Positions 3,617-12,226 are shown, counted from the stretch's first letter. The stretch: DNA of 18,246 nucleotides from a virus (IMGVR_UViG_2609459834_000002:1-18246), one strand, 5' to 3'. Numbers and translations: made by a program. Notes: generated from the letters alone by a model not told the origin.

Positions 3617-3874
3617 TCAAATACTACCCTGTTGATGATTTCTCAGAAGCGAACTTGACTCCCAAGGGAAACTCAACTTTCCGTTAAAACCACCAGCAGA
3701 CATTCGTTCAATTTCCACAGAAATATCACTGAGCCGTTCTTCAAGCTCTGCTTTTTCTTTTACCAGACGGTTATAGCGGCTTAGATGAAGCTTTTGCTGC
3801 TCCAGCCAGTCTTCAAGCTGTTCAACAGTCATACCAGGGTTAAAAAAATATGGCTGCTGCTTTTCGCCCTGCAT
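3617..3874 (-). CDS. Hypothetical small protein (85 aa), first ORF of the late transcript
   Basis: Track ORF 3617-3943 trimmed to the ATG at 3874-3872, which has GGAGG 6 nt upstream. The longer version would include the terminator hairpin. Predicted helical, acidic; no family recognised. Confidence 0.5.
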   Translation of the reverse strand: MQGEKQQPYFFNPGMTVEQLEDWLEQQKLHLSRYNRLVKEKAELEERLSDISVEIERMSAGGFNGKLSFPWESSSLLRNHQQGSI

Positions 3875-3892
3875 TATTGACCTCCAGAAAAG

Positions 3893-3914
3893 CAAAAACC
3901 CCGCCGAAGCGAGG
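3893..3914 (-). terminator. tR'-like rho-independent terminator downstream of Q (minus strand)
   Basis: Minus-strand RNA CCUCGC-UUCG-GCGGGG (6-bp stem including one G-U pair, UUCG tetraloop) followed by U5. Lies about 50-60 nt downstream of the candidate late promoter, as for lambda pR'/tR'. Confidence 0.5.
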
Positions 3915-3964
3915 TTTGTTATGATTTCGTTAACGGCAGACATACAAAGCCCATCGTTAGGAGA

Positions 3965-6597: not shown

Positions 6598-7006
6598 ACT
6601 TCGTTTCTCCTCTTAATCGGGCGGCTGCCCCCGCCGTTTTCTCGTACTTACTGATAGTGATCTCGACCTTCCCTTCCGGGATAACCGGTCCCCACTCCAC
6701 CAGCATTCTTTTCACCTGACTGTCGTCTTCCCACACACCCGCGTGGGTCAGGGCGTCAAACAGCGCCTTGTTATAGTTGTCCAGATCGCGGATCCGGTTA
6801 TCCGGAGGAAACAACACGATCTCCACTGAAGCAGGTGCCGACGTTGGTTTCGGCAGACGACGTAACTGCTCAACTATTGCTGCGCACGCCGCGCTCTGAA
6901 ATTTTCGCCCCGCCGCGCTTATCAGGCTCTTACCAGCAAATGCCCCTTTATTGGGGTGTCGCCAGTACGTGTTCACGCTGGGCGGGAAAGGCAGGATCAG
7001 CTTCAT
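6590..7006 (-). CDS. rusA: Crossover junction endodeoxyribonuclease RusA (Holliday junction resolvase)
   Basis: 138 aa; N-terminal MKLILPFPPSVNTYW and RDLDNYNKALFDAL are RusA signatures. ATGA-coupled to the upstream gene. Confidence 0.9.
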   Translation of the reverse strand: MKLILPFPPSVNTYWRHPNKGAFAGKSLISAAGRKFQSAACAAIVEQLRRLPKPTSAPASVEIVLFPPDNRIRDLDNYNKALFDALTHAGVWEDDSQVKRMLVEWGPVIPEGKVEITISKYEKTAGAAARLRGETKYE

Positions 7007-7329
7007 ACTTTCAGGCCCCTCTCATGTAACCAGTGGGTTGCACGCAGCCTGGCGTTTTCCTCACCGGCAAGCAGTGAGCGGATAATCCCGACCGCCTCGC
7101 TGTCGTCGTCCTTCACCGCGGTATGAAGAGTGATACCCCGGGCCACGCCACGCTTTATCGTGATGACGCCTTTTTTCTCCAGTGCGCGAAGATGTTCCAC
7201 CGCTGCATTCACTGAACGGTATCCCAGCATGGTTGCCACCTCCTGATTGGTTGGCGGGAAGCCACGTTCTTTCTGGTAAGAAATCAGCATATCCAGCACC
7301 TGCTGCTGGCATTGAGTTAACGTCGTCAT
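7003..7329 (-). CDS. LexA-type N-terminal DNA-binding domain protein (no peptidase domain)
   Basis: 108 aa; LTQCQQQVLDMLISYQKERGFPPTNQEVATMLGYRSVNAAVEHLRALEKKGVI resembles the LexA winged-HTH. No S24 protease motifs. ATGA-coupled on both sides. Confidence 0.6.
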   Translation of the reverse strand: MTTLTQCQQQVLDMLISYQKERGFPPTNQEVATMLGYRSVNAAVEHLRALEKKGVITIKRGVARGITLHTAVKDDDSEAVGIIRSLLAGEENARLRATHWLHERGLKV

Positions 7330-8469: not shown

Positions 8470-9288
8470 TCACCCCCTGAATCCTGCCGGGATCTGGCTG
8501 TAGTCCACGTTGTCGTAACTGGCTTTGAAGTACGGGTCCTCGCGTCTGGCTGCAGATACCGCAGGAACTTCCCAGGATTCTTCGAAATGACGATCCGGAC
8601 CAAAGAACGTGACAGCCTGTTTCACAAATTGTGTGCCGCTGTTACCCATCGCAGATACCCAGCCCGCGTAGCGTTTCACACCTTCCAGCATGGTTTCGGG
8701 GTTTACTCCCTCATTCAAACGGGCTTTCCAGGCTTTGAAGGCTGCAGATTTTGAATTGCCACCAGCACGTTTGGGATATGCCAGCCATGCCTGCTCAAAC
8801 TCCGGAGAGTATTCCGGTCGGTTTGAACGAACTCGCACGGACTCATCAACTGATGCACCAACAGCTATTGGTTCATTGACTGGTTCTTTGACTGGTTCAA
8901 AAGAGTGACTGGTTCTGGGTGAATCTCCTGCACTACCCCCTGGTGCAACTCCTGCACTACCTGGTGAATTTGCTGCACCAGATAGTGAATTATTTGCACT
9001 ACCCCCTAGTGAATCTCCTGCACCATCCAGATGAAGGAGATAGATATTACTTGAGTTACCTTTTTCACCTTTCCGGGTGACTTTTTTTACCAGCCCGGAC
9101 TCACAAAGGGCCGCAATATGATTCATCACAGAACGTTTGCTAATCTCGCACTGGTCAGCAATATGCTGATAGCTGGGCCAGCACTCACCCTGATCGCTGG
9201 CATTATCAGCCAGCTTGATCAGAACCAGTTTTCGCAATGGATTACCCACTCGAATTTTCATCGCTTTAACCATCAGCTCCATACTCAT
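8470..9288 (-). CDS. Phage replication initiation protein (N-terminal HTH domain, repeat linker, C-terminal domain)
   Basis: 272 aa. N-terminal HTH (PLRKLVLIKLADNASDQGECWPSYQHIADQCEISKRSVMNHIAALCESGLV), a Gly/Ser/Ala-rich linker encoded by tandem DNA repeats, and a basic C-terminal domain. Sits at the lambda O position after the cro/CII-like genes. Confidence 0.7.
   Translation of the reverse strand: MSMELMVKAMKIRVGNPLRKLVLIKLADNASDQGECWPSYQHIADQCEISKRSVMNHIAALCESGLVKKVTRKGEKGNSSNIYLLHLDGAGDSLGGSANNSLSGAANSPGSAGVAPGGSAGDSPRTSHSFEPVKEPVNEPIAVGASVDESVRVRSNRPEYSPEFEQAWLAYPKRAGGNSKSAAFKAWKARLNEGVNPETMLEGVKRYAGWVSAMGNSGTQFVKQAVTFFGPDRHFEESWEVPAVSAARREDPYFKASYDNVDYSQIPAGFRG
8877..9028. repeat. Iteron-like tandem repeat array inside the replication gene (candidate phage origin)
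   Basis: Five tandem 21-24-bp repeats at 8917-8940, 8941-8961, 8962-8982, 8983-9006 and 9007-9028, consensus tGGTGAATctcCTGCACTACCccc. Three copies of TGACTGGTTC at 8877, 8889 and 8907. A moderately AT-rich stretch follows at 9029-9090. Confidence 0.5.
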
Positions 9289-9509
9289 GCTGCACCTCCG
9301 AGATGCTTCATGTTTTTTCCGGAGCGAAAGGCTATAAGCGGCATACTGACGCGGTAATTACGGCCCAGCGGTTCACAAACCACCTTCTGACATTCACGGT
9401 CAACCAGGCTAACACGTAGAACATGCCCTGCAGGCGTGGTGTACCACTGACCGGGGCGAGGACAACGGAAAGTCTGATTGGTAAATCGTTTGAAAATATT
9501 CCGGATCAT
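9285..9509 (-). CDS. Hypothetical protein (74 aa), translationally coupled between Rha-like and replication genes
   Basis: ATG at 9509 overlaps the Rha stop (ATGA) and its stop overlaps the replication-gene ATG at 9288 (ATGA). No recognised domain. Confidence 0.5.
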   Translation of the reverse strand: MIRNIFKRFTNQTFRCPRPGQWYTTPAGHVLRVSLVDRECQKVVCEPLGRNYRVSMPLIAFRSGKNMKHLGGAA

Positions 9510-10063
9510 TTGCGCCCCCTTACCTCTGAAGAGTTCAGCGACGAATGAATAAGACGGGCAAGAAATGCCGCATCGTTAATTCGGTCATACAGACTTACAG
9601 CCAGAGGTGATTCAGCTTTTTCCAGCATGGGATAAAGCTGCTGCAACCAGACCTGATGAATTGATGAAATGTAGGAATAGAGAACGCTGGCGTTATGTGC
9701 AACGTCGCTCGGTACAGAGGGCTTTGAAAGCTGTTTCTCCATCTGGTTAAAGGCATTGATGTATGCCTCTTTGAACTGGGCAGCACGTTTCCCCGTGAAA
9801 CCCATAGCAAGAAACGCAAAGCCGTCGCGGGTTATTTGATAGCAAGGAAGTTTGCGAGTACCGCCGTTGGGCTGGCGTACCAAAATTGATGTCTCCGCAA
9901 AATTGCGGGCACAAAACTCTGGAGAACAATCCAAAATGCGGATCTTTTTCAGAACATCGTCATGACGTTTAGAGAAGAAGTCAGCAACAGCCAAAGAAGA
10001 TGTAACAGCCTGACCATCAACGATGGCAATTTCAGGTTGAGAGAGGGTTGGGAGAGTAGTCAT
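9506..10063 (-). CDS. Phage regulatory protein, Rha family
   Basis: Product from the internal ATG at 10063-10061 (MTTLPTLSQPEIAIVDGQAVTSSLAVADFFSKRHDDVLKKIRIL...YQITRDGFAFLAMGFTGKRAAQFKEAYINAF) matches the Rha N-terminal domain. The track ORF extends in frame to 10669; that extension is treated separately in findings. Confidence 0.75.
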   Translation of the reverse strand: MTTLPTLSQPEIAIVDGQAVTSSLAVADFFSKRHDDVLKKIRILDCSPEFCARNFAETSILVRQPNGGTRKLPCYQITRDGFAFLAMGFTGKRAAQFKEAYINAFNQMEKQLSKPSVPSDVAHNASVLYSYISSIHQVWLQQLYPMLEKAESPLAVSLYDRINDAAFLARLIHSSLNSSEVRGRK

Positions 10064-10665
10064 GGTGACAGCCCCGGTAGTCAGTTTTTTAGAAAACTCA
10101 CCACATGGGACGCCAATCACAGAGGTGGTGAGACGTACAGGGTTGGCGTTACCGGAGACTACCGAACCCGGCCCGACCGAAGTCGGCCCTGTACGCCCCA
10201 CCATAATTTGGGCGTAGCAATGCTCATGACACGAAAAAACCGCATGAGCGCGGTTATGCTCAGTAATCAATTTCAGGACGCCAATCCCGGCACCCGTTTT
10301 ATAAGGTGCCTGAACAGTGTAACGTCCCGGAATGGCAGAATCAATGTGCTGGTGGTCCTTCACACTCAACAAAATCACGCCTGAATTTCCACAAAGGACT
10401 AAAGCACTCATGCGGGTAGTCTTTGCGAAGATAGATAACGCGCTGTGTTTCTGGCTCCCAACGAATAACATGAACATAAAGTCCTCTTCCGTCACGAAAC
10501 CAGCGGTTAAGTTCCTGCACAACTCGCCCCCCACAGTCAGGTAAAGTTCTCTGTGGTTACTTACAGCCAGGTGATTTGGTAATCTGCATTCATGCCGTAA
10601 CAACAGGTGTTCAGCGACGCTGACCACCTGTTGTTGCGACAAACGGTTATTTGCCGTTAAACTGT

Positions 10666-11229
10666 TCATGCGTTAGTTTCTCCACAGACACAAAACGCCA
10701 CGACGCCCGGAGCTGCACACTCGCGGGCGTCACTCTTTTCTGGAGCGCAAAAGATTTTGTAGACCAGTGCTGCATGCTCCTGGAGCTTCGAAATTGACAG
10801 ATACAACTCATCATTAATTGCTGTCTGCTCGTGTGGCTCCACTACCCCATCTTCGATTGCCGAACGAATCTGCTTTGAGTAACTCCCGATCTGTTCGATG
10901 ACTTCCAGCAGGCGCTGGTTTATATCGGCGTTCTCTACTTCCTCAATTTCAGGAAGCGATACAAACACCCCACCAGCAGACTGTGCGACAGCATCCGCAA
11001 TGTAGTGAGTGCCAGCCGCGCGCTGTAAAATCATTGCCCATCCCAGCGGGAAAATCTGATCGCCATCTGCACGAAGGCGGTTGAATAAAGCGTTCTCTGT
11101 TACATCCAGCCACTCAGCAGCTTCAGCGTAACCCCCCGGCAACGCCGCGATAGTTTTTCTGACAGCTTTCACGTACCACTCAGGCTGTTTTTCTACTTTC
11201 CAGTGATGCTTACCCACGGTTAGCCTCAT
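10666..11229 (-). CDS. CII-like / YdaT-like regulatory protein (tentative)
   Basis: 187-codon ORF immediately downstream of the cro-like gene on the same strand, the CII position. No strong RBS at ATG 11229; an in-frame GTG at 11217 has GAGG upstream. Family assignment is by position and weak recollection. Confidence 0.45.
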   Translation of the reverse strand: MRLTVGKHHWKVEKQPEWYVKAVRKTIAALPGGYAEAAEWLDVTENALFNRLRADGDQIFPLGWAMILQRAAGTHYIADAVAQSAGGVFVSLPEIEEVENADINQRLLEVIEQIGSYSKQIRSAIEDGVVEPHEQTAINDELYLSISKLQEHAALVYKIFCAPEKSDARECAAPGVVAFCVCGETNA

Positions 11230-11260: not shown

Positions 11261-11461
11261 TTAATCTTTCGGATAGATATCCGGTCTTAAGTCAGATTTC
11301 GTAATTGCACCTGACGTGCATTGCTCAAGTTTTTTAGCCAGCACAAAACTGGCTTTTTTATAACCATTGAAAACCAGCCGTAAGTAGCCTGGTGTTGAGC
11401 CAACTTTTCCGGCCAACTCGCCCTGCTGTTCTTTGGTTAAAGAGTCCCAATACGCTTTCAT
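11261..11461 (-). CDS. Cro-like HTH regulator (YdaS-like)
   Basis: ATG at 11461-11459 with GGAGG RBS about 10 nt upstream. The 66-aa product MKAYWDSLTKEQQGELAGKVGSTPGYLRLVFNGYKKAS...LRPDIYP is divergent from the repressor gene. The 167-aa track ORF is an upstream extension running through the operator region. Confidence 0.7.
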   Translation of the reverse strand: MKAYWDSLTKEQQGELAGKVGSTPGYLRLVFNGYKKASFVLAKKLEQCTSGAITKSDLRPDIYPKD

Positions 11462-11464
11462 ACA

Positions 11465-11536
11465 ATATGTACCTCCGATATACATATTACATGATTGAGA
11501 TGAACCTTCAAGATACTTGTACCCTATCGGTACAAA
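11465..11536. promoter_or_regulatory. Immunity operator/promoter region (OR-like; pR leftward, pRM-like rightward)
   Basis: Two operator-like inverted repeats: 11465-11487 ATATGTA-N9-TACATAT and 11518-11536 TTGTACC-N5-GGTACAA. Candidate pR on minus: -35 TTGAAG (plus 11504-11509) and -10 TAATAT (plus 11482-11487). The cI-like ATG at 11552 has no convincing RBS, suggesting a leaderless or weakly initiated mRNA. Confidence 0.5.
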
Positions 11537-11551
11537 GGTTTTAATTTCGTT

Positions 11552-12226
11552 ATGAAAACAGTCCATGACATCCGGCGGTCTAACGCCAGAAAACTGAGAG
11601 ATGGTGTTGGCGGGAATTCTTCCTTTGCCACCATGATTGATCGCGAGCCAACCCAGACCAGCAGGTTTATGGGGGATGGTGCTACTAAAAATATCGGTGA
11701 CAGCATGGCACGGCACATCGAAAAATGTTTCGACCTGCCTGTCGGATGGCTTGATCAAGAACACCAGACAACAAACATCACAAAAAAACCTGATGTTTCA
11801 ATCACTAACAAACAAATAACGTTAGTCCCTGTCATATCATGGGTACAGGCCGGAGCATGGAAAGAAGTTGGCTATTCTGAGGTTGATTTGAGCACAGCAG
11901 AAACTTATCCCTGCCCTGTACCCTGTGGCGAAATGACTTATATCTTGCGGGTGATTGGTGATTCAATGATTGATGAGTACCGCCCGGGAGACATGATTTT
12001 TGTTGATCCCGAAGTCCCTGCCTGCCACGGTGACGACGTTATTGCATTGATGCACGATACAGGCGAAACCACCTTTAAGCGGTTGATAGAAGATGGAACA
12101 CAGCGTTATCTCAAAGCATTAAACCCAAACTGGCCTGAACCTTACATTAAGATCAACGGTAATTGCTCTATAATTGGCACAGTGATTTTCTCAGGAAAAC
12201 CAAGAAGATACAAAATAAAGGCCTAA
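11552..12226 (+). CDS. CI-like prophage repressor (HTH plus LexA-like S24 peptidase domain)
   Basis: 224 aa. C-terminal domain has the S24 autocleavage-fold motifs (VIGDSMIDEYRPGDMIFVDPE). Divergent from the cro-like gene and followed by a strong terminator. Confidence 0.85.
   Translation: MKTVHDIRRSNARKLRDGVGGNSSFATMIDREPTQTSRFMGDGATKNIGDSMARHIEKCFDLPVGWLDQEHQTTNITKKPDVSITNKQITLVPVISWVQAGAWKEVGYSEVDLSTAETYPCPVPCGEMTYILRVIGDSMIDEYRPGDMIFVDPEVPACHGDDVIALMHDTGETTFKRLIEDGTQRYLKALNPNWPEPYIKINGNCSIIGTVIFSGKPRRYKIKA

Follow-up and report, generated by a model that had tools for sequence, protein, structure and literature searches.

The initiator gene and the repeats within it

The window analysed here, by which we mean the whole stretch of 18,246 nucleotides (nt) of IMGVR_UViG_2609459834_000002, comes from a lambdoid prophage of the SfV/ST64B type and comprises its early and lysis region. 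Its minus strand carries a gene for a replication initiator, inside which five iterons are followed by a conserved element built of GAACC units, and we propose that iterons and element together form the replication origin of the prophage. The features in question are the following:

8470-9288, minus strand: replication initiator gene, 272 amino acids plus stop (list of open reading frames (ORFs), translation)
9031-9288, minus strand: N-terminal winged-helix DNA-binding domain (predicted), residues 1-86 (AlphaFold2, Pfam)
9029-9068: least stable 40-mer of the region, on the promoter-proximal (N-domain) side of the array, nearest-neighbour free energy (dG) -45.7
9009-9023, coding strand GTGCAGGAGATTCAC: iteron 1, promoter-proximal
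8985-8999, coding strand GTGCAAATAATTCAC: iteron 2
8964-8978, coding strand GTGCAGCAAATTCAC: iteron 3
8943-8957, coding strand GTGCAGGAGTTGCAC: iteron 4, a perfect 5-bp dyad
8919-8933, coding strand GTGCAGGAGATTCAC: iteron 5, ending 2 nt before the conserved element
8870-8918, minus strand, coding strand CC AGAACCAGTCAC TCTTTT GAACCAGTCAAA GAACCAGTCAAT GAACC: putative origin-core element
8473-8817, minus strand: C-terminal helical domain, residues 158-272 (AlphaFold2 helices at 162-214 with a predicted local distance difference test score (pLDDT) of about 70-78)

All five iterons follow the dyad-symmetric 15-bp pattern GTGMANNNNNTKCAC, that is GTG[C/A]A-N5-T[G/T]CAC, which matches exactly five times in the window, always on the plus strand and always within 8919-9023, against a chance expectation of 0.11 matches (mean of 200 dinucleotide-preserving shuffles, none of which reached five). 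The same array is reported by Tandem Repeats Finder and by find_repeats. The original prediction, a reading of this DNA from its sequence alone, had placed five tandem repeats at 8917-9028, and with small corrections these are the five 15-bp sites described here. Core-to-core spacings on the coding (minus) strand are 24, 21, 21 and 24 bp, all five copies are therefore in frame, and they encode G(S)AGDSP-type units (residues 89-125) of the linker between the two domains, as had been predicted. AlphaFold2 predicts residues 91-157 to be disordered, and disorder is predicted for the peptide encoded by iterons and element.

In the element, GAACC units start at 8915, 8898, 8886 and 8874, with spacings of 17, 12 and 12. 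Copies of the 10-mer TGACTGGTTC (also given as GAACCAGTCA) lie at 8877-8886, 8889-8898 and 8906-8915, and the window has no others; three copies had been noted at 8877-8916, all of which hold with zero mismatches, and a fourth GAACC can be added at 8870-8874. One of the 10-mer copies is read as RTSH and two as EPV, so that a single gene uses two frames for one and the same sequence.

The protein was assigned to PHROG 270, 'replication initiation protein' (E value 1.7e-88). It is 100% identical to the product of SfV orf39 (tblastn) and to its homologue in Shiga toxin (Stx) 2c phages, and 88% identical to Sb42 of ST64B; the gene region is matched at 98.6% nucleotide identity by the Eru6 representative Stx2a_WGPS2, and the initiator region is that of the 'Eru6' replication type of Stx phages (PMC8951638). 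The N-terminal domain belongs to PF13730 (HTH_36, 44.1 bits with a cutoff of 25, residues 17-67) and is modelled by AlphaFold2 as four helices with a beta hairpin (pLDDT 79-94), the model being good for this domain only; ISKRSVMNHI is the predicted recognition helix, and a Foldseek search with the model gave only generic winged-helix matches (E value about 0.02). For the C-terminal domain, PHROG annotations read 'DnaD-like helicase loader' (E value 8e-33) and 'primosomal protein', and it is probably an adaptor to the helicase-loading machinery. No Pfam family matches it, the C-terminal domains of the relatives being likewise unclassified by Pfam; DnaD_N stays below the Pfam cutoff (24.3 bits, where 27 are needed), which leaves the protein outside the DnaD/DnaB_2 primosomal family, a name given to it by PHROG annotations only, and neither a sequence search of the PDB nor NCBIfam returned anything meaningful or useful.

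Iterons in related phages

Three sets of relatives were compared: annotated phages found by tblastn; 80 prophages of bacterial genomes found with the N-terminal domain alone, a set unbiased toward repeats; and viral contigs found with a 27-mer, which are biased and were used for architecture only. The linker always holds three to eight copies of the 15-bp site, both in more than 150 relatives, at a phase of 21/24 bp, and in the 56 non-redundant lineages, where the copies are spaced by 21 bp or by a pair of 23+22 bp and the last spacing always is 24 bp. The site nearest to the element shows at least 4/5 dyad symmetry in 46 of the 56 lineages, compared with 2.2% of background 15-mers. The 23+22 pairs shift one site into a different reading frame. 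Sites outside the usual frame make up 24 of the 205 distinct ones of the form GTGNA-N5-TNCAC (about 12%); GTGCAGGAGATTCAC, for example, is translated SAGDSP in one place and VQEIH (peptide 'GVVQEIHQG') in another. A comparison of iteron number across related prophages, suggested along with the original prediction, revealed that the number varies: near-identical E. coli proteins carry 1, 2, 5, 7, 8 or 9 units, with 8 in the isolated phage cdtI. Among the E. coli alleles are P0042 with one iteron, P0028 with two (64 contigs) and P0040 with a deletion of the last iteron together with the GAACC element.

Four classes of recognition helix among the relatives map one to one onto four classes of iteron:

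helix x[KR]RS[VA][MI]xH: site GTG[CA]A-N5-T[GT]CAC, always together
helix SKSAVRxH: site TGCC-N7-GGCA
helix DRSTVR[KR]H: site TAGGC...AGCA
helix GRSTVK[VL]H: site GGGCA-N5-TGCCC

Both arms of the site change together from class to class, so the dyad is preserved. Two natural recombinants, P0062 and P0072, are chimeras, in which an Eru5-type or Klebsiella-type N-terminal domain with its iterons is joined to an SfV-type C-terminal domain exactly at the GAACC element; in both, the N-terminal domain stays with its own iterons. It should be noted that helix and sites are adjacent, so that linkage contributes to the class association, which is supportive rather than a proof.

A flexible linker needs neither dyad symmetry nor phasing nor conservation across frames, while binding sites of a dimeric protein need all of them. 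The dyad symmetry, the helical phasing, the cross-frame conservation, the variable number and the match with the helix class thus show the DNA itself to be under selection, as iterons should be.

The conserved GAACC element

In nearly every relative, an element of the general form CC-AGAACCAGTCAC-TCTTTT-GAACCAGTCAAn-GAACC begins exactly 2 nt after the last iteron. In the unbiased set, 72 of 78 complete genes carry it in its canonical reading frame, with no more than 6 mismatches over 29 nt. The three TGACTGGTTC copies of the window are part of this family-wide element, which is conserved at the nucleotide level, and not a local oddity.

Codon usage was compared in 59 sequences of less than 90% nucleotide identity, found by protein similarity. 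Conserved residues of the N-terminal domain use 3.5 codons on average, the top codon accounting for 53%. The codons of the element hardly vary: Arg is AGA in 54/54, Thr ACC in 40/40, Ser AGT in 57/57 and TCT in 56/56, His CAC in 51/51, Glu GAA in 58/58 and 54/54, and Val GTC in 53/54. Those changes that are seen are non-synonymous (T/I, H/N, F/S/L/P, P/S, R/G). The same codons persist in Pseudomonas prophages, and the GC content of the element remains at 0.40-0.42 even where the flanks follow the host at about 0.6. An inverted AGAACCAGT copy at 9220-9229, in the region coding for the N-terminal domain, is not conserved and probably due to chance, its Val codon being GTT in only 9/59 relatives.

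The frame of the element is not fixed either. Five Shewanella/Parashewanella prophages read it in another frame, as PEPVT and not RTSH, with two units 15 nt and not 17 nt apart. In mEp013, CC-TAACCAGTCAT-ATA-TAACCAGTAAA is followed by an A/T run and read as NQS; Pseudomonas phage PotUPM1, with 34% identity in the N-terminal domain, carries CC-AGAACCGTAAT-AGAACCAACAAG-GAACCGTCAGCA-GAACCGCAA, and a Vibrio phage carries AACCATCA three times. Across lineages, three frames are used in total. Folding of the element as single-stranded DNA does not exceed that of shuffled sequence. The near absence of synonymous drift, the changes of frame and the lack of structure together imply a constraint on the nucleotide sequence that is independent of the frame. 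Counted over 87 lineages, GAAYC stands at positions +1, +18, +30 and +42 in 87, 86, 82 and 23 of them (background 0.67 per position), and the window has all four units.

In PotUPM1 (L214), mEp013 (L012) and two Vibrio phages (L213 and L216), initiators with no more than 34-55% identity in the N-terminal domain, dyad iterons are followed by CC and then by (A)GAACC, TAACCAGT or AACCATCA units every 10-14 nt. As such distant initiators share dyad iterons, CC and units, the design is older than the exact 37-mer.

No published description of the GAACC element or of this origin was found in searchable texts, a search that did not cover the 2002 SfV genome paper; motif strings including RTSHSFEPV match unrelated primers only, and the papers on Eru types mention neither iterons nor an origin.

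Comparison with lambda and other replicons

The arrangement closely follows that of lambda, whose initiator gene comes behind cro and cII in the early rightward operon; that of the window likewise stands after the cro-like, cII-like and Rha genes. In lambda and in the Stx phages 933W and P27 (six-iteron), the origin occupies the central part of the initiator gene, which codes for the interdomain linker, and consists of a direct array of imperfect inverted repeats whose number varies between phages (PMC7466680). The repeats of the window are alike in both respects, five dyad-symmetric sites in a direct array lying between the N- and C-terminal domains. In lambda, 933W and P27 a type-specific DNA-binding N-terminal domain is combined with a C-terminal domain that recruits the helicase loader, and by analogy the protein of the window would have the same layout. 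The easily melted region is promoter-distal in lambda and is proposed to be so here.

There are also differences. The N-terminal domain of lambda O belongs to PF04492 (123 bits in a control search), whereas that of the window belongs to PF13730, with no PF04492 match at E <= 0.01, and the window is therefore placed outside the lambda origin family. BLASTP found nothing significant between lambda O and the protein of the window, and the C-terminal domains are unrelated too. Lambda iterons are sites of 18-19 bp, those of the window 15-bp cores at 21/24 bp; where lambda has an A/T run (for example AAAAGACACTATTACAAAAGAAAAAAGAAAAGATTATT), the window has an element of 40% GC made of near-invariant GAACC 12-mers. 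Furthermore, the P gene of lambda is missing from the window, although relatives share parts of the lambda arrangement, namely the C-terminal domain of the L133 prophage and a P gene next to the initiator gene in 10 of 34 lineages.

The L133 prophage provides a link. Its N-terminal domain is 84% identical to that of the window and comes with the same iterons and the same element, while its C-terminal domain matches the C-terminal half of lambda O with 37% identity (E value 3e-22). On the lambda side, this alignment begins at residue 155 of O, immediately rightward of the AT-rich region. The cassette of N-terminal domain, iterons and element therefore occupies the place that in lambda is held by the O N-terminal domain and the origin. 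A lambda P homologue was expected next to this C-terminal domain; the gene found there is DnaC-like. Throughout the 34 lineages, the gene following the initiator is DnaC/IstB-like in 12, lambda P in 10, a DnaB-type helicase in 5 and a Toprim primase in 2. L090, which has the same C-terminal domain as the window, carries a DnaC/IstB-like gene after the initiator, and AsXd-1 (L002) carries unannotated genes in the corresponding place. Phages of the SfV type may depend on the DnaC of the host.

Iteron plasmids (RK2/TrfA, F/RepE, pPS10/RepA) and oriC resemble the window in having a winged-helix initiator, phased iterons and adjacent repeats of about 12-13 nt. They differ in that the window has a putative origin within a gene, dyad-symmetric iterons and no perfect DnaA box. 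The dyad symmetry suggests that the initiator binds as a dimer. Another comparison is offered by the Bacillus phage SPP1, whose oriL lies inside gene 38 (G38P), and by the DnaD-type replisome organisers: in these systems, the initiator or organiser binds repeats that lie within the gene encoding it, and a helicase loader takes over from there. The protein of the window resembles them in its sub-threshold DnaD_N hit and in its PHROG matches annotated 'DnaD-like helicase loader'; it differs in that DnaD_N stays below the Pfam cutoff, that the C-terminal domain has no Pfam match and that the host range is another one.

Weighing the proposed origin

With a probability of roughly 0.7, we take 8870-9023, possibly extending to 9068, to be the place from which a lambdoid prophage of the SfV/ST64B type replicates, an origin contained in the gene of its initiator. 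On the comparative evidence, the repeats are very likely binding sites of the initiator, and it is likely, with a little less confidence, that they form the origin; for the GAACC element as an unwinding or helicase-entry core we see an even chance. That the original prediction compared the intragenic iterons with those of lambda is borne out by position, domains, neighbours, DNA-level selection and the L133 prophage, which all point to an origin of this kind.

Several observations weigh against this assignment. No strongly AT-rich tract adjoins the last iteron and neither flank resembles the long A/T run of lambda; the moderately AT-rich stretch that had been predicted next to the repeats is present but only modest, 30-nt stretches on the GAACC side of the array having 40-43% GC. 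There is no perfect DnaA box in 8600-9300 (two matches with one mismatch lie at 8618 and 9061), no GATC cluster, and no GATC at all in 8800-9100. For no member of the family did a literature search turn up data on binding, unwinding or the origin. The viral-contig loci were picked with the 27-mer, and freedom from bias holds only for the sets obtained through protein similarity. In some prophages the allele has only one or two iterons or is without the GAACC element, and these reduced alleles may either mark defective prophages or set the minimum needed by the origin. Finally, the match between helix and iteron classes could stem in part from physical linkage and shared ancestry, and the uniformity of the element may owe something to recombination, given its place right on a module boundary.

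The least stable 40-mer at 9029-9068 has to be considered as an alternative or second easily melted flank, its dG of -45.7 comparing with a window mean of -55.2 (standard deviation 3.9); a dip in GC at -150 to -120 is also found in relatives from high-GC hosts. The consensus of IHF has one match, away from the array. Antisense to the initiator gene, 9065-9080 on the plus strand resembles a terminator, with a hairpin and a T-run; one such structure was found where shuffles predict 1.0, and it probably is a chance occurrence.

The alternative that survives best concerns only the element, which might chiefly be a patch of homology at the module boundary, used for swapping C-terminal domains and with no direct part in initiation. 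About 41 clusters of unrelated C-terminal domains begin directly after the element, sequence conservation is back to background beyond +36, and the recombinants P0062 and P0072 have their junctions exactly there. Nevertheless, a passive patch should drift synonymously between phages of Pseudomonas, Vibrio and E. coli, which it does not; relatives without the 37-mer, such as PotUPM1, keep CC-(A)GAACC units at 11-12 nt, and a periodicity of 12 nt with a variable number of units is what would be expected of a repeated recognition unit. We consider this reading unlikely, and the two roles are not exclusive and may coexist.

Less probable still is that the repeats bind the initiator but act mainly as operators, in autoregulation, roadblocking or copy control, with the origin lying elsewhere. 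Binding sites placed within the gene of the initiator could block transcription of that gene, a strong AT-rich DNA unwinding element is missing next to them, and the iterons of plasmids have a double role in origin function and control. However, a repeat search of the window found no other array, the strict flanking element and its fixed 2-nt junction are hard to explain as parts of an operator, and the arrangement is that of lambda, whose intragenic iterons are the origin (PMC7466680).

Two further readings are highly improbable. Repeats that were only a slippage-driven, low-complexity Gly/Ser/Ala/Pro linker would account for five copies in frame, a disordered peptide and a variable copy number, but not for dyad symmetry in 46 of 56 lineages, nor for a 15-mer kept in different frames with different peptides, strict helical phasing and sites matching the recognition helix. 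An element acting as RNA (translational pause, frameshift site or target of a small RNA) would fit its place within the mRNA, its rare AGA codon and its TCTTTT run, yet the T-run is its most variable part, the frame differs between lineages so that no codon-level signal is preserved, structure does not exceed that of shuffled controls, and the only Rfam match, to mir-875 (22 bits, with a gathering score of 84), was rejected as chance.

A possible mechanism of initiation

If the intragenic array is the origin, dimers of the winged-helix N-terminal domain would bind the five dyad iterons, which are about two helical turns apart, so that binding would build a nucleoprotein complex similar to the O-some. 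This complex would destabilise the adjoining GAACC element with its 12-nt repeats, 2 nt past the last iteron, and a sequence-specific hold on one of the melted strands may help, as for the 13-mers in the unwinding elements of plasmids and oriC. There, contact between the initiator and one strand of the melted repeats has been described (PMC10602881; reviewed in PMC4980987 and PMC10797057), and lambda O has been reported on single-stranded A/T-rich DNA (PMC7466680). By analogy, the initiator may contact the GAACC units in single-stranded form; that their spacing varies (12, 14, 15 or 17 nt) accords better with recognition on a flexible single strand than with binding to a rigid duplex. The interchangeable C-terminal domain would then bring in the helicase system of the phage. 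As the prophage has no loader of its own, the helicase is probably host DnaB-DnaC.

A more specific version, which we put forward tentatively and hold to be somewhat less probable than its negation, is that CC-AGAACCAGTCAC-N6-GAACCAGTCAAn-GAACC is a sequence-specific signal for melting or helicase entry, made of 12-nt units on one strand and read either by a conserved part of the N-terminal domain or by a common gammaproteobacterial host factor. If true, it would be a portable origin core for a class of prophages with differing iteron specificities and loaders, including Eru5 and Eru6 Stx phages.

Other genes of the window

The initiator gene (8470-9288) is preceded on the minus strand by genes of the cro-like and cII-like (PF06892) kind, then by that of a Rha/Ash regulator and by an ORF of 74 amino acids; the cI repressor gene (PF00717) is divergent. 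Downstream follow PerC/YfdN, Dam, a protein consisting of the LexA DNA-binding domain only, RusA, KilA-N, DUF968, antiterminator Q, holins, endolysin and Rz. Within the window, no helicase-loader gene is encoded, PerC/YfdN and Dam sitting after the initiator instead. No sigma-70-like promoter was found. The 74-residue ORF was considered as a conserved partner of the initiator and rejected, its product being without similarity to that of an equally long ORF in phage ZF40. Four ORFs should be mentioned in particular:

11261-11764, minus strand: 167-residue ORF with a C-terminal cro-like (YdaS-type) helix-turn-helix, overlapping the start of the divergent cI (11552-12226, plus strand)
9506-10669, minus strand: 387-residue protein combining an Ash (PF10554) with a Rha (PF09669) domain, encoded after the cII-like gene and before the initiator
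7003-7329, minus strand: 108-residue protein with the LexA DNA-binding domain only (PF01726, 69 bits) and without the S24 peptidase domain
3617-3943, minus strand: 108-residue ORF with no Pfam match, between antiterminator Q and the holins, the slot of stx in Stx phages

The true start of cro is probably further downstream than that of the 167-residue ORF. Proteins of the Ash/Rha type were noted in Eru6, Eru7 and Eru9 by the papers on Eru types, which assigned no role to them. The LexA-domain protein could be an uncleavable mimic of LexA at SOS boxes.

Distribution and significance

Homologues of the initiator number roughly 5,400. The element region is present in 924 of 5,426 complete E. coli genomes, and the cassette is found in SfV, ST64B, cdtI, Stx2c and Stx2a phages as well as in prophages of Pseudomonas, Shewanella, Aeromonas, Vibrio, Xenorhabdus and others. 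According to the paper that defined the Eru types, nothing is known about the proteins in the replication of those Stx phages (PMC8951638). The lambda-type intragenic origin is a known kind; what is new is a family-wide core of GAACC repeats conserved at the nucleotide level. As a DNA signal kept through three reading frames in a gene, it is a clean example of overlapping constraints. Origin, helix-iteron rule and 37-nt core together make a testable model of phage copy number control and hence of Stx dose, and the same features could serve for the prediction of replicon incompatibility and for prophage typing.

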